DNA of 64,000 nucleotides from Salmonella phage vB_SenS-3. Position 1 is the stretch's first letter. Each line of letters begins with the position of its first letter. Location of the stretch: sequence record OR896822.1. One strand, 5' to 3'. Made by a program: the position numbers and the translations under genes. Positions 43,104 through 52,737 of the stretch are shown in pieces. Under the pieces are notes generated by a model. That model searched no databases, was not told the origin of the DNA, and saw nothing but the letters and a program-made list of their open reading frames with translations.

Positions 43104-45876
43104 TTCTAGCCCCCAATTCAGCAAGAGCTTCCTCATGCATCTGACGTTCTTCATCTGTCATAAACTTAACTGGAATCGGCATACATTCGATCTTACAGTA
43201 AGTTCTGTACCAGTCCACAATCTTTTCCGTATCCAGATCTTTACCGATACCCATCATGCCAAGATACATACGAGCATATTTTGGGTTAGCGCTCTGACCT
43301 GTCTTAAGGAAGAAATCCTTCTTCTTATTCTTAAGAGCTTCGATAAACGGTTTGATTGTTACGTTTGAACACTTTTTAATATCTTCCCAGAACATGTCGT
43401 GCATCTTATGGAAGAATGCAGCTCTATCGTTTGGTTTATCCTTGATATACTGTTCAACGTGTTCCACTGTTACATCTTTAATAGAATCCAGATGATAATA
43501 GCGAACCAGAAGTAACTTGGCTTCATAGGCATCTGCATGACGTGGTGCACAATATTCAGGAGTTGAGTGCAAAATAGCTTTGATTCGCTCTTCTGTATAC
43601 TCTTTGCCTGCACCTTCGATAGTCCCCCAGCTTTCACTGAAGATATCAATAGTTGCACCTTGATCGAGAAGATAATAACGCAAAGTACTGGTATAGTTTC
43701 TAGATTCCAGCTCACGACGGCGTGCGTACAGTTGCTGAGCTAACTCAATCCAACCCTCGTCAATATTATATTGCTCGGAACCAGCAGAGAATCCACTCGT
43801 AGATTTATCAATAAAATAATAAATGTTCTGAGCACCACGGTCGCGCCTGATTGCTTGAAAACGCATGTTTGGCGCTTGGTTTGAGGTTCTAGTGATTACG
43901 AATACGTTATCAAAATAGTTAAAGTCAACACCACTCGTTACAGATGGACTACATAACAAACAATCAATCTGTTGATCAATTAGCTCATTAGTTGTATAAT
44001 CCAGAATACGTCGGATATCTACATCAGACGTAGAGTTTGAGTGAATTTCTTTAACTAACGCACCAGTATTACGACGTAATGCCATTCCCTTCTCATTCAG
44101 TTCATCCGGGCCACAGTCAGATACTAGGATTGATTTCTCCCCCATCTCTAAAGATGTTTGAAGTGCAACCCAAATACTGGATTCATCAGGGAACTCATAT
44201 GCATGAGCTTTTGCCAGCATTTTACGGTGATGATTATAGAACGCGACCGGTTTATCAAAATCAATCAAAGAACCATAGGCTTCAATCGTTTCTGCACTGA
44301 TATCACCATCAGATAAGATAACCGTTTTTGCAGTAATAAGAATATCGCGAAGAACCTGAATACATTCACGACGGTTTTTAACAACCGGGGCGAATAACAG
44401 ATCATTCATTACTGCGTCACATTCATCAATAAAGATCGTATCAATCTGACCCACAAAGCTCTTGAACTTATGGATAGAGTGAATAGTTGAAGACATACGA
44501 TCAATAGCACCACGTTTGAAGTTCAGCATATCAACTGACTTATCATACTGACCAGCACCGAATTTCTTCGCGTTTGAAGATACAAGTGCCCTAGTATTTG
44601 TGATTGCAATAAAGTTTCCTGGAAGAACACCTGCATCTAGCCACTTAGTTACTGCTGTGGTTTTACCTGTACCAAGACTTGCCTTAACAAATGTTAAATG
44701 TCCTTTTGGGGGTACAATGTTAATCTTCAAGTATGGAACTTCTGGCGGTGAATCTGTGTCCAGACGCTTTAGTGGTACACCTTTTAAGTTGGGTGGAATC
44801 TCACGTTTGGAGTTATTCACAAAGGCTTTTAGAGCCTGCTTACGACCGTTATTAAAGTAATCTTGAATATTACGACTATTATCTTTAGTTGCAATATATT
44901 CAGATAAAGCTGGTTTAATCTCACGTTCTAACCACGTAAAGTCAACACCATCTTCTAACGCTCTGTGATAAAGTTTTGGGATAATACGCAGGTACACCCC
45001 ATCCTCAGCTTCTTCTAGTTCGCTGATGGTTTCTTCCACTTTATCAGATGCAGCTTTCTTGCCTTTAATTTGGTCAAGTAAGGAGTAGAATTCTTCTTTA
45101 AACTCACCTCTAGTTGTTTCAAAGTCAACTAGGTTATTGGGTAGATTCACTTTCGAACCCTTAACATACACAAGACGTGGTTTATTCTCCGCTTTAAACG
45201 GATCGACTATACCATCATCAAACAAGGGATCTGCGAAATAGTGAAGCTGAACAGAAGAATAATAAGCTAAGTCAGCAATATCAAAGCCATACTTTTGCTT
45301 ACTACTGTCATTGATAGATGTAAATAAGAACTTTAACTGTCCCTGCGTTACCTTGACATTAGATTCTAGCATTAAGTGCATTCGGATACCTGGTTTTAAT
45401 CCAGCCGAAGACGATGCATGGGCAATAAACCCTGCATCAAGAGGAAACATATCCTCACTAATACTATTCAACATCTTAATAATATGACGTGCCATGCCAA
45501 CAAGATTAAACTTGTCATAGCCACCAGTATCTACAATACCATCCACGTCCATAGCGATAATATGACTAGGATTGGATACGTTAAAGTTTCCTCTGGTACG
45601 ACGCACATTATCTTTTGGAGCTAGACATTTACCACGAATAGCTACAATATGCGGGTCTTTGGTAAGACGACGCATGATAGATAACATTTCAGCAAGGTTT
45701 TGCGGGTCAAGTTCTTCAAGTACATCAAATTTGAAGGGCATGGAAGCTGGTTTACCTTCTGGATGCTCTTTAGAGAATCGCTTTGCAAAGGTATAATCTT
45801 CCACTTTGATCTCTTTCCAGATGCCAGTGGCTTTATCTCTGGAAAATCCTGCGTGACCTTGTAGGATTGAGAACAC
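43087..45876 (-). CDS. putative primase-polymerase (AEP-like) / P-loop helicase fusion protein
   Basis: Start moved to GTG at 45876 with AGGAG RBS 7 nt upstream (ORF track ATG at 45999 has no RBS); N-terminal D-x-D motif HIIAMDVDG resembles AEP primase motif I; central Walker A SLGTGKTT and DExD-like IFIDECD. Confidence 0.6.
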   Translation of the reverse strand: MFSILQGHAGFSRDKATGIWKEIKVEDYTFAKRFSKEHPEGKPASMPFKFDVLEELDPQNLAEMLSIMRRLTKDPHIVAIRGKCLAPKDNVRRTRGNFNVSNPSHIIAMDVDGIVDTGGYDKFNLVGMARHIIKMLNSISEDMFPLDAGFIAHASSSAGLKPGIRMHLMLESNVKVTQGQLKFLFTSINDSSKQKYGFDIADLAYYSSVQLHYFADPLFDDGIVDPFKAENKPRLVYVKGSKVNLPNNLVDFETTRGEFKEEFYSLLDQIKGKKAASDKVEETISELEEAEDGVYLRIIPKLYHRALEDGVDFTWLEREIKPALSEYIATKDNSRNIQDYFNNGRKQALKAFVNNSKREIPPNLKGVPLKRLDTDSPPEVPYLKINIVPPKGHLTFVKASLGTGKTTAVTKWLDAGVLPGNFIAITNTRALVSSNAKKFGAGQYDKSVDMLNFKRGAIDRMSSTIHSIHKFKSFVGQIDTIFIDECDAVMNDLLFAPVVKNRRECIQVLRDILITAKTVILSDGDISAETIEAYGSLIDFDKPVAFYNHHRKMLAKAHAYEFPDESSIWVALQTSLEMGEKSILVSDCGPDELNEKGMALRRNTGALVKEIHSNSTSDVDIRRILDYTTNELIDQQIDCLLCSPSVTSGVDFNYFDNVFVITRTSNQAPNMRFQAIRRDRGAQNIYYFIDKSTSGFSAGSEQYNIDEGWIELAQQLYARRRELESRNYTSTLRYYLLDQGATIDIFSESWGTIEGAGKEYTEERIKAILHSTPEYCAPRHADAYEAKLLLVRYYHLDSIKDVTVEHVEQYIKDKPNDRAAFFHKMHDMFWEDIKKCSNVTIKPFIEALKNKKKDFFLKTGQSANPKYARMYLGMMGIGKDLDTEKIVDWYRTYCKIECMPIPVKFMTDEERQMHEEALAELGARNDSEE

Positions 45877-46372
45877 AACAATACTCCTATGTTGGTTATT
45901 CGAATATCTTTCTTTAGGACTATTCAAAAGAATAGAACAACTATTACTACCATTTACACAAACATTAATCATCATCAAGCAGTATGAATAAGTTATCATA
46001 CCTCAGTGCTGCGCTCTCTTAACTCTTATCCAGATCAGAACCTAGGTCATTGGCCGCTAAGCCGATTCTGATTGCCCTCACTATCCTATTGGTAGGTGGC
46101 TACTGGACGTGTCACCATTCGCTGCTCTTTTCGTTCGCACCCCCATATAAAGCTCTGCCTATATAACGAGCTAAATATGCACGGTTTGGATTTACCTTTC
46201 CGAATTCAGGGTACGCAGATCACTTAATTGATAATTAACTAATGCAGTATAAACACTAGTAATAGTTAAAACAACCCTTAATGGGGCAGCCTAACTGTTC
46301 CGTATTGCGGACTGTAAACAAGAAAAATTAGCAAAATCAATTTTTACTAATGTCTCTCAATTCAATATAAAT

Positions 46373-46401
46373 ATTATATCAAGATTTTGAGCATCCTGCA
46401 A
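46373..46401 (-). promoter_or_regulatory. T5 early-type promoter about 480 nt upstream of primase-helicase start
   Basis: Minus strand TTGCAG-17-TATAAT followed by ATTTATATTGAATTGAGAGACA. Confidence 0.55.
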
Positions 46402-46440
46402 GTAAAATTTTTCCGAAGGTGCTATCAGTGTCCTTGAGCA

Positions 46441-46468
46441 CAGAGAAAACCGAGTCAAAATGACTCGG
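46441..46468 (-). terminator. rho-independent terminator (minus strand)
   Basis: Minus strand hairpin CCGAGTC-atttt-GACTCGG followed by TTTTCTCTG. Confidence 0.6.
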
Positions 46469-46492
46469 TAATCAGGATTGAGCTAATGAAAA

Positions 46493-46816
46493 TCAATCAT
46501 CATTTAGGCCTGGGACATAGATTCCAATGCGATTTAATTGACCTTTAGCTTCTTCGAGAATATCTTCGGTGTACTCCCAAATATCATCTTCTACTTGCAA
46601 AAGATAAGGGGATTCACCAGTTTCGGGCTCACGTGTAATGGCTAAGCCACGTGGATGGAATATAGAGAAGTTGAGGGCAACAATCAAGCCCATGCTGGAC
46701 AATTCATTCCAGTCAGCTTCCCAGCCATCATCTTCATCTTCGTCCACAAATACACCTACACTAGGGTCTGTTACAGAAGTAAACGGAAATGTTACACTAA
46801 CCTTGTCAACCCCCAA
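46493..46816 (-). CDS. hypothetical protein, paralog of 46898..47326; N-terminus interrupted by in-frame TAG (possible pseudogene)
   Basis: C-terminal 70 aa align with the neighbour (DWNELSSMGLIVALN...GIYVPGL vs DWKELDEMGLVFALN...GYMIPGL); an in-frame ATG at 46888 with TAAGGAGG RBS gives MEQVFWRQIDPSLV, then TAG at 46844-46846. Confidence 0.4.
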   Translation of the reverse strand: MGVDKVSVTFPFTSVTDPSVGVFVDEDEDDGWEADWNELSSMGLIVALNFSIFHPRGLAITREPETGESPYLLQVEDDIWEYTEDILEEAKGQLNRIGIYVPGLNDD

Positions 46817-46897
46817 CCAACGTGCAAGGAGCCCCTCAGCACGCTATACCAAACTAGGATCTATCTGACGCCAAAATACTTGTTCCATTCTGCCTCC

Positions 46898-47326
46898 TTA
46901 AGCAGTTAAACCTGGGATCATATACCCGAAACGACGAAGTTTCTGAATCCCCTCATTTACTTCCTCGGGCGAATATGACCAGCCCTCACGTTCATTTACC
47001 TGGAAAGCAGGAGCTTCACCAGTGCGATAGTTTACAATAAGACGGTGATTTGCAGGCATAAACAGCTTATGGTTCAAGGCAAAAACCAGACCCATTTCAT
47101 CGAGTTCTTTCCAGTCTACAATTTCTTCTACTCCCCCACCTAAATCCACGCTAACTCCAATACACGGAGCTTCCTCTAGTGGGCCTTTAAAAGACAGGAA
47201 GATATCGTTATTCTCACACCAAATCTTAAGCAGATTGATGGTTTCATTGTACATACCATTAGGGAGAGAACGCCAGAAGTTGAGGAGCATAGGATTTACC
47301 TCTTTCATGAAAATATTATTGAACAT
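46898..47326 (-). CDS. hypothetical protein (paralog pair member A)
   Basis: 142-aa ORF; start 2 nt after upstream stop; homologous to the downstream ORF. Confidence 0.5.
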   Translation of the reverse strand: MFNNIFMKEVNPMLLNFWRSLPNGMYNETINLLKIWCENNDIFLSFKGPLEEAPCIGVSVDLGGGVEEIVDWKELDEMGLVFALNHKLFMPANHRLIVNYRTGEAPAFQVNEREGWSYSPEEVNEGIQKLRRFGYMIPGLTA

Positions 47327-47328
47327 GC

Positions 47329-47868
47329 TTATACCTTAAGTTTCTGAAGAGCCTTACACATTTCAAGATCTGGACTAAATTCCAGCATATAGCTTATAGC
47401 ATTTAAATCTTGAAGGTTTATTCCAGTCCTGCCATTTACAATAACAGTAGGAAATTGGTACATCATAGCACCAGCATCATCTAGGACGCACCAATGCTTG
47501 AGCTTATGTTTTTCTACGAAACGTAAGACAGAATTACCTCGAGATAAACCACCTCCAGTAAAATCTGTTGTACCAAGAAAACGATCGATCAAACCGAGTC
47601 CGGTCATAATCTGAACGTTCTCCATTTCATTTCGTACAGAAAACCATGAAGATACCCCAACAATCATTATTGGGGATGGCTTAAGAAAGTTCTGAAAAGC
47701 CTGGAGTAATGGCTTGTAAACCCAATCACCACCAAAGAATAGCTTTTCACTATCTGGAGCATGATGGTGAGAGATGCTCGAATTGAGCACCCCATCAATA
47801 TCCGGGAAAATCACAGGAGTATTACTTATTTCCACCAGTAGCATCCCACGTCCAGACTTTAACTTCAT
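47329..47868 (-). CDS. HAD-superfamily phosphatase, 5'(3')-deoxyribonucleotidase-like
   Basis: Motif I FPDIDGVLN (DxDGxL) near N-terminus as in NT5C-type nucleotidases; true start may be the internal Met (MLLVEIS). Confidence 0.5.
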   Translation of the reverse strand: MKLKSGRGMLLVEISNTPVIFPDIDGVLNSSISHHHAPDSEKLFFGGDWVYKPLLQAFQNFLKPSPIMIVGVSSWFSVRNEMENVQIMTGLGLIDRFLGTTDFTGGGLSRGNSVLRFVEKHKLKHWCVLDDAGAMMYQFPTVIVNGRTGINLQDLNAISYMLEFSPDLEMCKALQKLKV

Positions 47869-48007
47869 CAGTAAAAGGAACTGGAACCTTCAATTCACCT
47901 TTACCCCACATAACAGATAGGAACAGAGAATAAATGGTAATCATACCGATTAGGTTGACAAACCATACTAGACCTTTCCAGATACCCTTAAAAATCTTCT
48001 TCACCAT
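47822..48007 (-). CDS. small membrane protein (61 aa)
   Basis: ATG at 48007 with AAGGAGG RBS; single hydrophobic helix GLVWFVNLIGMITIYSLFLSVMW. Confidence 0.35.
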   Translation of the reverse strand: MVKKIFKGIWKGLVWFVNLIGMITIYSLFLSVMWGKGELKVPVPFTDEVKVWTWDATGGNK

Positions 48008-48170
48008 ATTCTCCCTCCTTAATAAGGAACTCTTTCCATTCTGCTGTATCCTCATAGATAACGCAGAAATCATCACTCTTCCATGAGAAGTCATCAGTAG
48101 CAAATTCGAAACGGTAGCACCAACTACCGTCTGGCCATACTAAAAGATCACACATGCTTTTCTGGGACAT
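47988..48170 (-). CDS. small acidic protein (60 aa)
   Basis: ATG at 48170 with GGAGGG RBS; acidic C-terminus EGEYGEEDF. Confidence 0.3.
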   Translation of the reverse strand: MSQKSMCDLLVWPDGSWCYRFEFATDDFSWKSDDFCVIYEDTAEWKEFLIKEGEYGEEDF

Positions 48171-48999
48171 AAATATTTCCCTCCATAAAAGCTTCAACTT
48201 GATCAATAAAGTGTTTATTACCAAAAACTTCGGCAGCTCCAGCACGCCATACAGTAACACCACGTTTCTCATATTCAAGCTGTTCATCATAGCGAACTTG
48301 AGGGTTAACAACCATCATCTTAGTTCCACGACATACAGCAGGGAATAGTTCCCAGTTGAAGTCAATCACTTGGTTGCTACAACCTACTACAATAACCATA
48401 TCATTGCTAGTAAGTGTATCAAACAGGTTAATCTGACCCATATACCACGGAGCCGTCTCACCAAAGAATGTTACGTTTGGTTTTACCCATTCGTAATCTT
48501 CAGGAACAATTGCAGTGTATCCAACATCTTCGATGATTTGATTGCGACCCCGACGATAGATCACCTCTTTCAAGTACCCGTGAGCGTGAATGATTTCATC
48601 ACGAGGGATACCAGCACGTTCCAGAAGGTCATCAACGTTAGTAGTGAAGTTCTTCACGCTATCCGCACCATAACGCTGGAACCATTCTGCAATTCGCAGA
48701 TGGGCAATGTTAGGCTCAACAGTCTGTAATTCCTGACGACGCATGTTGTAGAACTCATGAGTCTTGAGATACAGATCGTTACCCTCTTCATCAATGCCAG
48801 GGAAACGAGCACTGAAGTAGTTAGGATCATCTTCACCACAGAAGCGACGGAAGCCAGCTTCAAAGTTAGGCAAGCTACATACTTCCTCTAGATCGTACTC
48901 ATCCCACAAAGATTTTCCACTAGCAGTATCAGTACGGAAAGCACGAACACCACTATCAACACTTAAACCAGCACCACTAACAATGATTAGTCTACGCAT
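48148..48999 (-). CDS. Sir2-family (sirtuin-like) NAD-dependent protein
   Basis: 283 aa; N-terminal Rossmann motif IIVSGAGLSVDSGVRAFR (cf. GAGIS..SGIP.FR); His-containing IIHAHGYL; C-terminal VVNPQ; no obvious zinc ribbon. Confidence 0.65.
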   Translation of the reverse strand: MRRLIIVSGAGLSVDSGVRAFRTDTASGKSLWDEYDLEEVCSLPNFEAGFRRFCGEDDPNYFSARFPGIDEEGNDLYLKTHEFYNMRRQELQTVEPNIAHLRIAEWFQRYGADSVKNFTTNVDDLLERAGIPRDEIIHAHGYLKEVIYRRGRNQIIEDVGYTAIVPEDYEWVKPNVTFFGETAPWYMGQINLFDTLTSNDMVIVVGCSNQVIDFNWELFPAVCRGTKMMVVNPQVRYDEQLEYEKRGVTVWRAGAAEVFGNKHFIDQVEAFMEGNIYVPEKHV

Positions 49000-49193
49000 T
49001 ATACGATTCCTTGCTTGAATCCTTCGATGATATTTTGGAGCAGAATTGCTTCTTCTGGGCGAACCTTCTCTTGCTTAATAAGCATATCCAAACCAGCAAT
49101 ACAGGTAGCTACTCCAGCATTATACCCAGCATTCCACTGCTCCATAAGCATATTTTCTAAATTACTTTTTAGATTCTGATTCAAGAAGTCCAT
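48999..49193 (-). CDS. small hypothetical protein
   Basis: ATG at 49193 (MDFLNQ...) with GGAGGA RBS; ORF track start 49277 lacks RBS. Confidence 0.35.
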   Translation of the reverse strand: MDFLNQNLKSNLENMLMEQWNAGYNAGVATCIAGLDMLIKQEKVRPEEAILLQNIIEGFKQGIV

Positions 49194-49365
49194 AAAGTTT
49201 TTCCTCCAATTCCATAATACGATTTTCGTAAGAAGCACGCAGCTTCTCGATGGACAAAGCACGAACTGTAACTTCATCTGAATTGATCGCTAGCTGAGCT
49301 AGATCTTCTGTTTCCATACGTCCGTTGTAAATTAAGCGATATTTAAGATGTTTTACGTTTTTCAT
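49162..49365 (-). CDS. small hypothetical protein
   Basis: 67 aa, ATG with TAAGGAAC RBS; overlaps next gene start by 32 nt. Confidence 0.35.
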   Translation of the reverse strand: MKNVKHLKYRLIYNGRMETEDLAQLAINSDEVTVRALSIEKLRASYENRIMELEEKLYGLLESESKK

Positions 49366-49374
49366 TCTTGTTCC

Positions 49375-49656
49375 TTAGTTCTGTACTGTAAATTCATTCT
49401 TATCACAGTGAGCATAATAATACCCATACATACGATAAATTTTCACAGCCTTAGTAGACCCCTTCGATTCTTCATAATCAATCCAGAGCCACTTGTCTTT
49501 ACCTACATAATGTACCCGAAACTTCTTAACTTTCTTATCATTCCATGTTGCAACAACACGACGATAATCAAATCCGCCCAACCAATCTAGAGCCTTACGT
49601 TCTTCACTAGGCTCTCCAAGATGGGAAACATCTACTTTCGGAAGCAATTCGCTCAT
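49375..49656 (-). CDS. hypothetical protein
   Basis: 93 aa; first gene downstream of a T5-type promoter; GAGGAG RBS. Confidence 0.45.
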   Translation of the reverse strand: MSELLPKVDVSHLGEPSEERKALDWLGGFDYRRVVATWNDKKVKKFRVHYVGKDKWLWIDYEESKGSTKAVKIYRMYGYYYAHCDKNEFTVQN

Positions 49657-49684
49657 AGCTTTCTCCTCTCAAATTTATAAATCA

Positions 49685-49713
49685 ATTATACATAAGTTTT
49701 AGCTCGAAAGCAA
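49685..49713 (-). promoter_or_regulatory. T5 early-type promoter
   Basis: Minus strand TTGCTT-17-TATAAT followed by TGATTTATAAATTTGAGAGGAG. Confidence 0.6.
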
Positions 49714-49747
49714 ATAAAATAAAAGCCAGGTCGACTAGCAACCTGGC
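49712..49747 (-). terminator. rho-independent terminator after nrdD (minus strand)
   Basis: Minus strand hairpin GCCAGGT-tgctagtcg-ACCTGGC followed by TTTTATTTTATTT. Confidence 0.65.
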
Positions 49748-49754
49748 TGATTCA

Positions 49755-51629
49755 TTATTTAGCGCGAATGTCTTGATGTTTCACTCGACCCATAACCTCA
49801 TGTTGTTTACCTGGGTTAAACGGACGAGCACCTGGATTTCCAAGATATCCACAAACTCGACGAGTTACCTCAAGAGTCTCAGGATCATGATTGCCACAAA
49901 TTGGGCATTTGAAACCATCCTCAGAAGCTATAGTTTCACCCAAGAACCCACATTCCCCACAAGAGTCTACTGGAGTATTAATACCGAAGTAATGAACTTT
50001 ACTTGCAGCATAGTTAATAACCCATTCCAGTGCATCAGGGAATCGTTTCATATCAGGCAATTCCACATAGGAAATGCACCCACCAGAAGCAATTGGGGTA
50101 AAGTTAGACTCATAATCGAACTTCACGTTCGGAGCAACCTTACGCTCCACATCAAGGTGATGAGAGTTAGTGTAATATCCTTTAACCAGAATATCTTCAT
50201 GCTCTGGGAAATACTCACGATCTAGACGACAGAAGCGATCACATAGAGATTCAGATGGTGTAGCATACAGACTATACCCTAATTGAGTCTCTTCCTTCTT
50301 CTGATCAGCACGATCACGCATGTATTGTAGCACACGTTGAACGAACTTGATACAGGATTCAGACATTGTATCTACATCTTTACCAAACATGAACTGTAAC
50401 ATTTCGTGGCAGCCAATATATCCTAGAGATACAGAAGCACGCTTGTAGAAATGATCAAATACATATTCATCTGGCCCCAGACGTAATCCAAAGGCTCCTG
50501 ACATATAGAGGATGGGCGCAGCTTTAGCTTGAATGTACTTTAAGCGATCAACCCTCCACTCCAATGCTTTTAACGCGGTATCCACACGCAGCTCAAGCAG
50601 ATCGAAGAATAGATCAATATTACCTTCCGCTTCGATAGCAATTCGAGGTAGGTTTACAGAAACAACGCCTAAGTTGTTACGACCAGAAGTTTCACCATCT
50701 TCCGCAGCAGCCAGGAATGAACGACAGCCCATAGAGACTTTGTAGTCTCCCGTAACTTCTACAACCTTATCATAACTGATGTAGTCAGGATACATACGTT
50801 CAGCAGTACATTTCATAGCTAACTTCTTGATATCATAGTTAACATCACCAGGTTTCATGTTTACGCCATCACGCAAAACAAATACCAGTTTAGGGAAGAT
50901 AGCTGTACGTTTATTGATACCCAAACCATCCATACGCACTTCTAGGATTGCTTTCTGTACAAGACGTGCTTCCCAAGAAGTTCCTAGACCAAACCCAAAG
51001 GTAATAAACGGACTTTGACCATTAGAGTTGAACATCGTATTGATTTCATACTCCAGGCCCTGACAGGCATCGTAAACTTCTTTCTCAGTCATTTCCGTAG
51101 CCATTACAGATGCTTTAGCTTCATCCTTAGTCCAACGCTTTGCAAACGCATGATTCTTATCATAAGACTTACGAACATAAGGAGCCAATACTTCATCTAA
51201 TCGGTCTACAGAAGTACCCCCATATTGATGTGAACTAACCTGAGTGATAATCTGAGCTGTGATAGCAGCCGCAGTAGTAATAGAGTTTGGTGTACTGATT
51301 TCAGCATTACCAACCTTCATACCATTCTTCAACATATCTTCCAAAGCAACCAGGCAACAGTTAGTCATACCTAACGCAGCGTAATCAGCATCATGGAAGT
51401 GAATATCACCAATCATGTGAGCATTTCGAATCTGGATTGGCATTTCTTCCAGAATCAGATGTTTACTCAATTCCCCTGCAAGCATGTCCCTTTGTGTAGG
51501 GAAACGTTCGCTTGGTTTGTTCGCATTATTAAAGAGTAGCTCTTCATCTGCTGATCCTTCGATAATTTCTTTGCAGTTTCGAATTAAGGACTGCACTCCT
51601 TTATACTTTAGTTCTTCATTGCGATTCAT
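49755..51629 (-). CDS. nrdD: anaerobic ribonucleoside-triphosphate reductase (class III)
   Basis: 624 aa; C-terminal glycyl-radical motif RVCGYLG; zinc ribbon CGECGF...CPICGN; GAAGGAGGG RBS. Confidence 0.85.
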   Translation of the reverse strand: MNRNEELKYKGVQSLIRNCKEIIEGSADEELLFNNANKPSERFPTQRDMLAGELSKHLILEEMPIQIRNAHMIGDIHFHDADYAALGMTNCCLVALEDMLKNGMKVGNAEISTPNSITTAAAITAQIITQVSSHQYGGTSVDRLDEVLAPYVRKSYDKNHAFAKRWTKDEAKASVMATEMTEKEVYDACQGLEYEINTMFNSNGQSPFITFGFGLGTSWEARLVQKAILEVRMDGLGINKRTAIFPKLVFVLRDGVNMKPGDVNYDIKKLAMKCTAERMYPDYISYDKVVEVTGDYKVSMGCRSFLAAAEDGETSGRNNLGVVSVNLPRIAIEAEGNIDLFFDLLELRVDTALKALEWRVDRLKYIQAKAAPILYMSGAFGLRLGPDEYVFDHFYKRASVSLGYIGCHEMLQFMFGKDVDTMSESCIKFVQRVLQYMRDRADQKKEETQLGYSLYATPSESLCDRFCRLDREYFPEHEDILVKGYYTNSHHLDVERKVAPNVKFDYESNFTPIASGGCISYVELPDMKRFPDALEWVINYAASKVHYFGINTPVDSCGECGFLGETIASEDGFKCPICGNHDPETLEVTRRVCGYLGNPGARPFNPGKQHEVMGRVKHQDIRAK

Positions 51630-51658
51630 TACACCCTCCTTCTCTAATTAAGACTACT

Positions 51659-51687
51659 ATTATAACTCATTCGAAGGCGGATGTCAA
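51659..51687 (-). promoter_or_regulatory. consensus sigma70 promoter for nrdD
   Basis: Minus strand TTGACA-17-TATAAT (perfect consensus hexamers). Confidence 0.7.
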
Positions 51688-51737
51688 CAATATTTTACCA
51701 TAAAGTTCTGTAACATGATCTGAGTCAAAAAATTTTA

Positions 51738-51766
51738 TTTGCCAACCTCTATTAAAAATAGTATAA
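51738..51766 (+). promoter_or_regulatory. sigma70 promoter (plus strand, divergent from nrdD promoter)
   Basis: TTGCCA-17-TATAAT. Confidence 0.5.
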
Positions 51767-51879
51767 TCACACGCCCGTGTACGCGATATAAAATGATTAT
51801 CTAGTACCATACATCTCCCAATAAAAGCAAGTAAATTTTTTATTTAAAAGCAATATCATGGGTTTATTTAAAATTATAC

Positions 51880-51908
51880 TTGCTTTTTGCTGTAAACCTT
51901 GTTATAAT
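51880..51908 (+). promoter_or_regulatory. T5 early-type promoter upstream of phoH
   Basis: TTGCTT-17-TATAAT followed by ATATTTGTAAGTTGAT. Confidence 0.6.
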
Positions 51909-51984
51909 ATATTTGTAAGTTGATAAACAAGATCTCTTTGTTGATCCTCTGTTAGAAGCGAAGTACACTATAGGAGTGTTATTT

Positions 51985-52737
51985 ATGGGAAAAGCACGTC
52001 AAAAAAGAGAGAACCGCAATGGTTCAAGAAAGCGTGGCAACAAGTATGATAGTAACGTAATTCAAGCAGATTTCTCTGGTGATTACGCCAATCCAGTTGC
52101 TAAATCCCTAGTTGGTAAAAACCGTGAGCAAAAATCATATATCAATATGATCAAGAACAACACAGTGACTGTTGGTATTGGTGAACCAGGTACTGGTAAA
52201 ACCTTTATTCCGTCCGTTCTTGCAGCTCAGGAACTCGTAGACATTCACTCAGATATTGAGCAAGTGATCCTCGTGCGTCCGAACGAACCTCTAGGTAAAT
52301 CTCTTGGTATGCTCCCAGGTGATCTGGCAGAAAAGCTAGAGCCTTGGTTGGAACCAATAGCCGATGGCATGAAATGGGCAATCGGTGATCACGCCTACAA
52401 AGGATATGTCGAACGTCAGAAAATTAAATTCCTGGCTATCGAACATGCCCGTGGCCGAACTTTCAACAACTCCTATGTAATTGTCGATGAAGCTCAGAAT
52501 ATCTCCGTTGAAGCAATGATCTGTCTCCTGACTCGTGTAGGACAAGATTGTCGTTTAATTATCTGTGGGGATATAGCGCAGAAAGACATCAAGGGTGATT
52601 CAGGTCTAGCACTTCTTATGGAAGTCTATGAGAAGTATGAAAACTCTCCTTTCTCTATGATCGAACTGATCGACAACGTTCGCTCACCAGAGTCTAAAGC
52701 ATTCTACGATATCTTTAAGGATATGGGGAAGGTGTAA
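51985..52737 (+). CDS. phoH: PhoH-like ATPase
   Basis: Walker A GEPGTGKT; Walker B YVIVDEAQN; ATG at 51985 with TAGGAG RBS (ORF track GTG 51976 sits within the RBS). Confidence 0.8.
   Translation: MGKARQKRENRNGSRKRGNKYDSNVIQADFSGDYANPVAKSLVGKNREQKSYINMIKNNTVTVGIGEPGTGKTFIPSVLAAQELVDIHSDIEQVILVRPNEPLGKSLGMLPGDLAEKLEPWLEPIADGMKWAIGDHAYKGYVERQKIKFLAIEHARGRTFNNSYVIVDEAQNISVEAMICLLTRVGQDCRLIICGDIAQKDIKGDSGLALLMEVYEKYENSPFSMIELIDNVRSPESKAFYDIFKDMGKV

Follow-up and report, generated by a model that had tools for sequence, protein, structure and literature searches.

The 64,000-nucleotide (nt) stretch of Salmonella phage vB_SenS-3 DNA analyzed here (sequence record OR896822.1; hereafter the window) carries on its minus strand, following a gene for a Sir2-like protein, two overlapping small genes that encode an acidic protein of 60 amino acids (aa) and a bitopic membrane peptide of 61 aa. 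Our analysis demonstrated that both genes are real and already catalogued in related phages, hence not new, and that they are hypothetical genes of the ordinary kind for the early region of T5-like phages. The initial annotation of the window had proposed that the two products form a toxin-modulator-like or regulatory pair. This proposal was not borne out, since each gene occurs without the other (in T5, KpGranit, the T5-like contig L016, unrelated phages and plasmids). The two are probably real, independent accessory genes of an early operon of T5-like phages (Epseptimavirus) and not a dedicated pair.

Coding evidence and previous annotation

The gene for the acidic protein (47988..48170, minus strand) extends from an ATG at 48170 to a stop codon at 47988-47990, and the gene for the membrane peptide (47822..48007, minus strand) from an ATG at 48007 to a stop codon at 47822-47824; they correspond to orf53 and orf52 of Salmonella phage S147 and to the protein families phrog_5116 and phrog_11166, respectively. 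Each is preceded by a strong Shine-Dalgarno (SD) sequence: GGAGGG (48179..48184, minus strand) lies 8 nt ahead of the ATG of the acidic gene, with a predicted anti-SD duplex energy of -9.8 kcal/mol, and AAGGAGGG (48013..48020, minus strand) lies 5 nt ahead of the ATG of the membrane-peptide gene, with a predicted value of -12.6 kcal/mol. The latter site is embedded in the codons for the C-terminal tail of the acidic protein (IKEGEYGEEDF). In the mechanically compiled list of open reading frames (ORFs) the two genes appear only as the tails of longer ORFs of 107 and 93 aa starting with TTG; at these upstream TTG starts, and at the alternative starts of the HAD phosphatase gene that follows, the predicted anti-SD duplexes reach only -2.2 to -5.4 kcal/mol. 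The combination GGAGG-N4-9-ATG was found 13 times in the whole window compared to 6.8 +/- 2.8 times in shuffled sequences (about 2-fold), and its minus-strand instances in this block are all located at annotated gene starts. The Sir2 and acidic genes overlap by 23 nt, the acidic and membrane-peptide genes by 20 nt, and with GTG 47835 taken as the HAD start, the membrane-peptide and HAD genes by 14 nt. The initial annotation was thus accurate in placing two overlapping minus-strand genes behind Sir2, in assigning them strong ribosome-binding sites (RBSs) and tight coupling to the Sir2 and phosphatase genes, and in pointing out that the ORF list shows them only as tails.

That both frames are genuine genes is indicated by the purifying selection acting on them. 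When ratios of non-synonymous to synonymous substitution rates (dN/dS) were determined by the Nei-Gojobori method in comparison with phages phiR2-01 and rutana, with dS ranging from 0.4 to 0.9, values between 0.03 and 0.26 were obtained: 0.03 (phiR2-01, dS about 0.8) and 0.12 (rutana) for the acidic gene, and 0.14 (phiR2-01, dS about 0.8) and 0.26 (rutana) for the membrane-peptide gene. The substitutions in both genes are concentrated at third codon positions. Conservation in related phages, which had been suggested as a check of the two frames, was indeed found, with length and frame of both genes being kept in homologues down to 55-65% amino-acid identity. The acidic protein matches phrog_5116 (E = 4.4e-29, residues 1-56 against profile positions 1-55 of 56) and, over its full length, phrog_28040 (E = 4e-9), and the membrane peptide matches phrog_11166 from end to end (E = 3.1e-44, residues 1-61 against positions 1-61 of 61); all three families are listed with unknown function.

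The whole window is about 99.8% identical to the Epseptimavirus S147, and the segment 47300-49000 is 100% identical to S147 and to phage polluks (Demerecviridae, Markadamsvirinae, Epseptimavirus) and has matches in a total of 446 records of T5-like phages. Both genes have previously been annotated as 'hypothetical protein', namely as orf53/orf52 in S147 (YP_009805943/YP_009805942), bas31_0055/0054 in DaisyDussoix, rutana_72/71 in rutana, and g095/g096 in phiR2-01, the records of the last also carrying RBS features; annotations exist in Sw2 and Sepoy, too. The S147, DaisyDussoix, phiR2-01 and rutana orthologues are the same genes as those described here. Gene order and overlaps in S147 are the same across 47300-49000, and there is essentially no difference except that the S147 membrane peptide is annotated from a GTG one codon downstream, resulting in a product of 60 aa. 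No paper mentioning T5.102-T5.105 or T5p101/T5p102 was found in a literature search, g094-g097 go unmentioned in the text of the phiR2-01 proteogenomics paper, and a PNAS 2026 paper on Bas33 as well as an NAD/ADP-ribose (ADPr) survey of viruses contain nothing on these genes. To the PHROG entries, which give no functional information, our analysis adds a motif, the breadth of occurrence, predicted folds and the independence of the two families.

Gene combinations between Sir2 and HAD

The acidic family, which we define here by the motif WPDGxWCYR...SDDY (SDDF/Y) in a conserved domain of about 45-55 residues, and the membrane peptide are found together in the window and in most Epseptimavirus genomes. 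T5 (AY692264) carries two acidic-family paralogues in tandem (2289-2647) without the membrane peptide, and the Sugarlandvirus KpGranit (MN163280) has Sir2 and only the acidic gene, which is unannotated there (2486-2650), without HAD and without the membrane peptide. In the metagenomic T5-like contig L016, Sir2 is followed by the membrane peptide and then by HAD, and the acidic gene is missing. Since all four combinations of the two small genes occur in T5-like phages, they appear to be independent of each other and not a pair. Unannotated members of the acidic family are also present in phages oldekolle and SE19.

The two T5 paralogues, T5p101 and T5p102 (T5.103 and T5.104), fill the same slot between Sir2 and HAD as the two genes in the window. 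T5p102 (60 aa) belongs to the acidic family, with 53% identity over 45 aligned residues, and overlaps the HAD start by 14 nt, like the membrane-peptide gene here, and T5p101 is a degenerate acidic paralogue without the SDDY motif (hhalign 87%). Further rearrangements were detected in other genomes. SP_Thor, Sw2 and Sepoy have an identical membrane peptide together with an acidic allele that has diverged (52 or 71 aa), and in L017 (a T5-like Logan contig of 111 kb, SRR27755633; 2260-2500) Sir2 has been deleted with the acidic, membrane-peptide and HAD genes being kept. What is left of the Sir2 gene in L017 is a short remnant (MRRLIVISGA... joined to ...HLEDRLHV), and the acidic gene is uncalled in this contig. 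In addition, DNA similarity between genomes breaks inside the Sir2-HAD slot. As judged from these genome comparisons the slot is a mosaic hot spot, in which small genes seem to be swapped, duplicated or lost, and it offers a clean example of such accessory-gene hot spots in Demerecviridae. The DNA similarity to Sw2 and SUT_E1620 begins abruptly at 48074, within the SDDF codons of the acidic gene, which suggests that recombination at the conserved SDDF-coding motif may have exchanged the 5' halves of acidic-gene alleles.

Several observations weigh against the view of the two as independent accessory genes. In 10 of the 10 loci inspected HAD follows the membrane peptide with a 14-nt overlap, and in Demerecviridae the acidic gene is nearly always located directly after Sir2. 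Few contexts were sampled outside Demerecviridae, and neither protein has a match in Pfam, NCBIfam, PADLOC or the PDB (sequences and folds) that would link it to a function. The two positional observations are those expected under the main rival explanation, according to which the acidic protein is a partner, substrate or inhibitor of Sir2 and the membrane peptide an anchor or partner of HAD: the acidic gene not only follows Sir2 but also overlaps with it, the membrane-peptide gene likewise precedes and overlaps HAD, and genes for stoichiometric partners are typically coupled in translation in this way. However, the acidic gene persists in L017 despite the loss of Sir2 and is missing from L016 although Sir2 is present there, and the acidic-family loci inspected outside Demerecviridae all lack an annotated Sir2 gene in their flanks. 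Moreover, HAD is present in 448 records of the phage collection compared to 221 for the membrane peptide (tblastn), T5 has HAD without the membrane peptide, and KpGranit, as described above, combines Sir2 and the acidic gene in the absence of both HAD and the membrane peptide. A partnership of the small proteins with the neighboring enzymes is consequently unlikely, although it would account for the conserved positions of the genes.

Still less probable is the initially proposed pair, in which the membrane peptide would be the toxic or effector component that is neutralized or regulated by the acidic peptide. The two neighboring genes share 20 nt and encode products of opposite charge (isoelectric points (pI) of 9.7 and 4.05), and an acidic-family gene precedes that of the membrane peptide in most Epseptimavirus genomes. 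In contrast to what such a pair would require, L016 has the membrane peptide without any acidic gene, and acidic-family members are found in the absence of the membrane peptide in T5, KpGranit, Kolesnikvirus, Schitoviridae, plasmids and hundreds of metagenomic clusters. Sw2, Sepoy and SP_Thor furthermore carry the same membrane peptide with the diverged acidic allele, and the conserved tail of the peptide is predicted to be periplasmic, while the acidic protein lacks a signal sequence. Co-occurrence of the two genes is thus not obligate, as it would be in a toxin-antitoxin system, and neither peptide matches a toxin-antitoxin or defense family in Pfam, NCBIfam or PADLOC.

Finally, it is extremely improbable that the frames are untranslated and that their SD-like motifs and open frames are by-products of neighboring coding sequence or an RNA element. 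Every ORF overlaps its neighbors, and the HAD start within the overlap fixes the GNK* ending of the membrane peptide; on the other hand, synonymous changes greatly exceed non-synonymous ones over the non-overlapped bulk of both frames, their length and frame are kept in the divergent phages mentioned above, a Rfam scan of 46000-50000 gave no RNA family (no match at E <= 1), and the acidic family comprises hundreds of independent clusters. The annotation question is clarified in that both short frames are genuine, catalogued genes, and interpreting them as a toxin/antitoxin-type module is not justified.

Operon layout and neighboring genes

The gene order in this part of the window (12 substitutions relative to S147 between 44300 and 52000) is headed by nrdD (49755-51629, minus strand), which lies upstream of the operon. 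A terminator-like hairpin after nrdD (49724..49748, minus strand) forms the upstream boundary of the operon, and a second one (46449..46469, minus strand) its end; no internal terminators were found in the gene block enclosed by these hairpins at 49748-49724 and 46469-46449. Promoter-like sites within the block are not above chance (6 found compared to 9.5 expected), and two candidate internal promoters at 48422-48395 and 47961-47934 were rejected on these grounds. The operon comprises, in this order, three small genes on the minus strand between nrdD and Sir2, the Sir2 gene, the acidic gene, the membrane-peptide gene, the HAD phosphatase gene and two DUF7415 genes. Both small genes under study would be translated from a polycistronic mRNA, each by means of its own strong SD site, and would be coupled to their neighbors by the overlaps of stop and start codons. 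This operon arrangement with separate SD sites and coupling overlaps is evident in the sequence.

The Sir2-like gene (48148..48999, minus strand) encodes a CobB-type sirtuin of 283 aa (Pfam PF02146, E = 2e-21; phrog_2162), and its 3' end contains the RBS of the acidic gene as well as the first 23 nt of this gene. The protein matches NCBIfam deacylase models with scores under their cut-offs, and no match to a defense-type Sir2 was obtained in a PADLOC scan. On the other side of the two small genes lies the gene for a HAD-superfamily phosphatase (47329..47835, minus strand), for which the initial annotation had used the term HAD/NT5C-like. The assignment to HAD could be confirmed (Pfam PF18143, HAD_SAK_2; E = 4e-17 and 63.3 bits, the gathering cut-off being 27.5), and the DxD nucleophile motif is present as DIDGVLN (DxDGV), but NT5C was not among the Pfam matches reported at E <= 1. 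The longest ORF of this gene starts at ATG 47868. However, T5 and DaisyDussoix annotate a product of 168 aa and GTG 47835 is equivalent to the start of T5p103, so that GTG 47835 (168 aa, as in T5) and not ATG 47868 is probably the true start. In RefSeq the corresponding S147 gene HOT66_gp050 (47329-47868) is labeled 'Sir2 (NAD-dependent deacetylase)', as is phrog_18062; judged by the HAD match of the encoded protein, this label looks like a propagated mis-annotation.

The operon ends with two tandem DUF7415 paralogues, the first at 46898..47326 (minus strand; Pfam PF24187, E = 3e-36) and the second, which is the last gene, at 46493..46888 (minus strand; Pfam PF24187); the T5 record notes a likeness of their homologues to genes of phages Aeh1, phiCTX and L-413C. 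A single substitution relative to S147, C>A at 46846, turns codon 15 of the second gene into a premature TAG stop, and this copy is either a pseudogene or is restarted at TTG 46816. Past the DUF7415 pair, beyond the terminator-like hairpin, lies a minus-strand gene for a D2-like helicase/origin-binding protein.

The two protein families and comparison with known systems

The acidic protein (about 7 kDa, pI 4.05, in accordance with the acidic peptide noted initially) contains 16 D/E compared to 5 K/R residues. In its AlphaFold2 (AF2) model, which has a mean predicted local distance difference test score (pLDDT) of 79.6, three short strands are accompanied by a short helix and a helix at the C-terminus, and the protein is accordingly modeled as a soluble, compact alpha/beta mini-protein. 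An exhaustive profile search revealed 423 clusters (50%-identity representatives) at E <= 1e-3, mostly standalone proteins of 46-60 aa, and members of the family are present in 483 records of the phage collection. The consensus of a 64-member alignment reads DDIxxWPDGxWCYRxE...KSDDYxVI...TxE...F, with W12 and D34 being invariant and at least 90% of the members sharing D8, C18, S32 and D33; the protein encoded in the window shows all of these features (W12, C18, S32-D33-D34 and D8 upstream). A Pfam scan of the 64 members gave isolated chance-level matches but no convincing family. Foldseek comparison of the model with BFVD retrieved uncharacterized phage homologues only. Two candidate similarities were rejected, namely the best PDB matches of the model in Foldseek (U-box domains, E 3.7, probability 0.05) and de novo TIM barrels obtained in a PDB sequence search with the acidic profile, for which no single stretch exceeded the threshold and which represent a repetitive-motif artifact.

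Some members of the acidic family are fused to an HTH_31 domain (P0092), to a zinc-ribbon-like N-terminus or to a second copy of the domain, which would fit a protein-binding module. The genes are found in arrays of small genes that follow the DNA polymerase gene in Kolesnikvirus, in a small-gene array of a Schitoviridae phage, in another such array that also contains an S-adenosylmethionine (S-AdoMet) lyase gene, and in a region flanked by DNA polymerase III alpha and terminase genes. The family is also present on two conjugative alphaproteobacterial plasmids near genes for an ArdC-like zincin protein and a WGR protein. These plasmids are Shinella pShin-10 and Ancylobacter pD (MOBQ/MPF_T), with a DUF736 gene on pShin-10, and according to our reading of the annotations both neighborhoods resemble leading or anti-restriction regions. 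The early-region contexts and the ArdC neighborhood, together with the shuffling of alleles, the duplication and the fusions, suggest that the acidic protein may be a cytoplasmic factor that binds or modulates a host or defense protein soon after DNA entry, in host takeover or counter-defense, and that it would be no partner of Sir2 or of the membrane peptide. We regard this role, which is derived from context and protein architecture, as a tentative possibility. The family as such is very widespread and has no Pfam entry, solved structure or assigned function. Because it recurs in diverse phage early regions and near anti-restriction-like genes on the two plasmids examined, it is a reasonable candidate for host-takeover or counter-defense screens.

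The membrane peptide (pI 9.7) has an N-terminal flank with a net charge of +4, and its highest Kyte-Doolittle score over 19 residues is 1.93 (residues 14-32); the transmembrane helix is predicted at about residues 12-34 (nt 47906-47974, minus strand). The AF2 model, with a mean pLDDT of 82.4, consists of a helix (residues 2-34) and a beta-hairpin (36-55), in agreement with the single-helix membrane peptide of the initial annotation. Conservation is centered on the basic N-terminus MxKKI, on GKG just past the helix and on the tail PFTD(E)xKxWxWD, and the transmembrane residues vary yet stay hydrophobic. Because of its 14-nt overlap with the HAD gene start, the peptide necessarily ends in GNK*, an ending shared by T5p102, an unrelated protein encoded at the same position. 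The family is narrow, with 11 clusters in the profile search, and all long contigs among them are T5-like. A word-indexed homology search yielded 5 to 11 matches and is too insensitive for proteins as short as the two described here, and a profile search of genome contigs with a narrow alignment gave one 10-residue match. Nothing meaningful was obtained by Foldseek comparison of the model with the PDB, and a poxvirus membrane protein (E = 0.098 only), which came up in a PDB sequence search with the membrane profile, was rejected. Nor does the peptide resemble a holin of a lysis cassette: its gene is located in the nrdD-Sir2-HAD operon, it matches no lysis family in Pfam or PHROG, and the S147 region corresponding to 44300-52000 contains no annotated endolysin.

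Based on the positive-inside rule the membrane peptide is predicted to be an inner-membrane protein with N-in/C-out orientation, whose conserved part would be a periplasmic beta-hairpin of about 27 residues. Its gene is an optional insertion immediately upstream of HAD that is restricted to T5-like phages. The peptide might act through this hairpin on a target in the envelope, for example in the exclusion of superinfecting phages or by modulating a host membrane protein, a suggestion drawn from context and architecture that we put forward with reserve. A reading that joins both parts is more speculative still. In this case the acidic family would represent early-entry inhibitors of a conserved host or defense protein, the membrane peptide a new periplasm-facing exclusion or envelope factor, and the Sir2-HAD slot an 'accessory island' of T5-like phages for counter-defense.

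Among known systems, acidic DNA mimics of the Ocr/ArdA type share with the acidic protein its charge (pI 4.05), but the acidic protein matches no PDB entry in sequence or fold and is modeled instead as a 60-residue alpha/beta mini-domain. Another small phage protein, the anti-aRES protein aRad1, has a conserved Trp and a loop with Gly15 (bioRxiv 10.64898/2026.01.28.702374). It is similar to the acidic protein in that both are small, standalone early phage proteins of comparable size with a conserved Trp and a Gly-containing loop; homology between them was rejected, since hhalign gave a probability of 0.85% with the published sequence (aRad1a). For the membrane peptide the closest parallels are Imm and Sp of phage T4, two small membrane proteins made early by the phage, which exert superinfection exclusion at the envelope. 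No sequence or fold similarity to these proteins was detected, and what they have in common with the membrane peptide is architecture and timing only, each being a small early inner-membrane protein with a short extracytoplasmic part.

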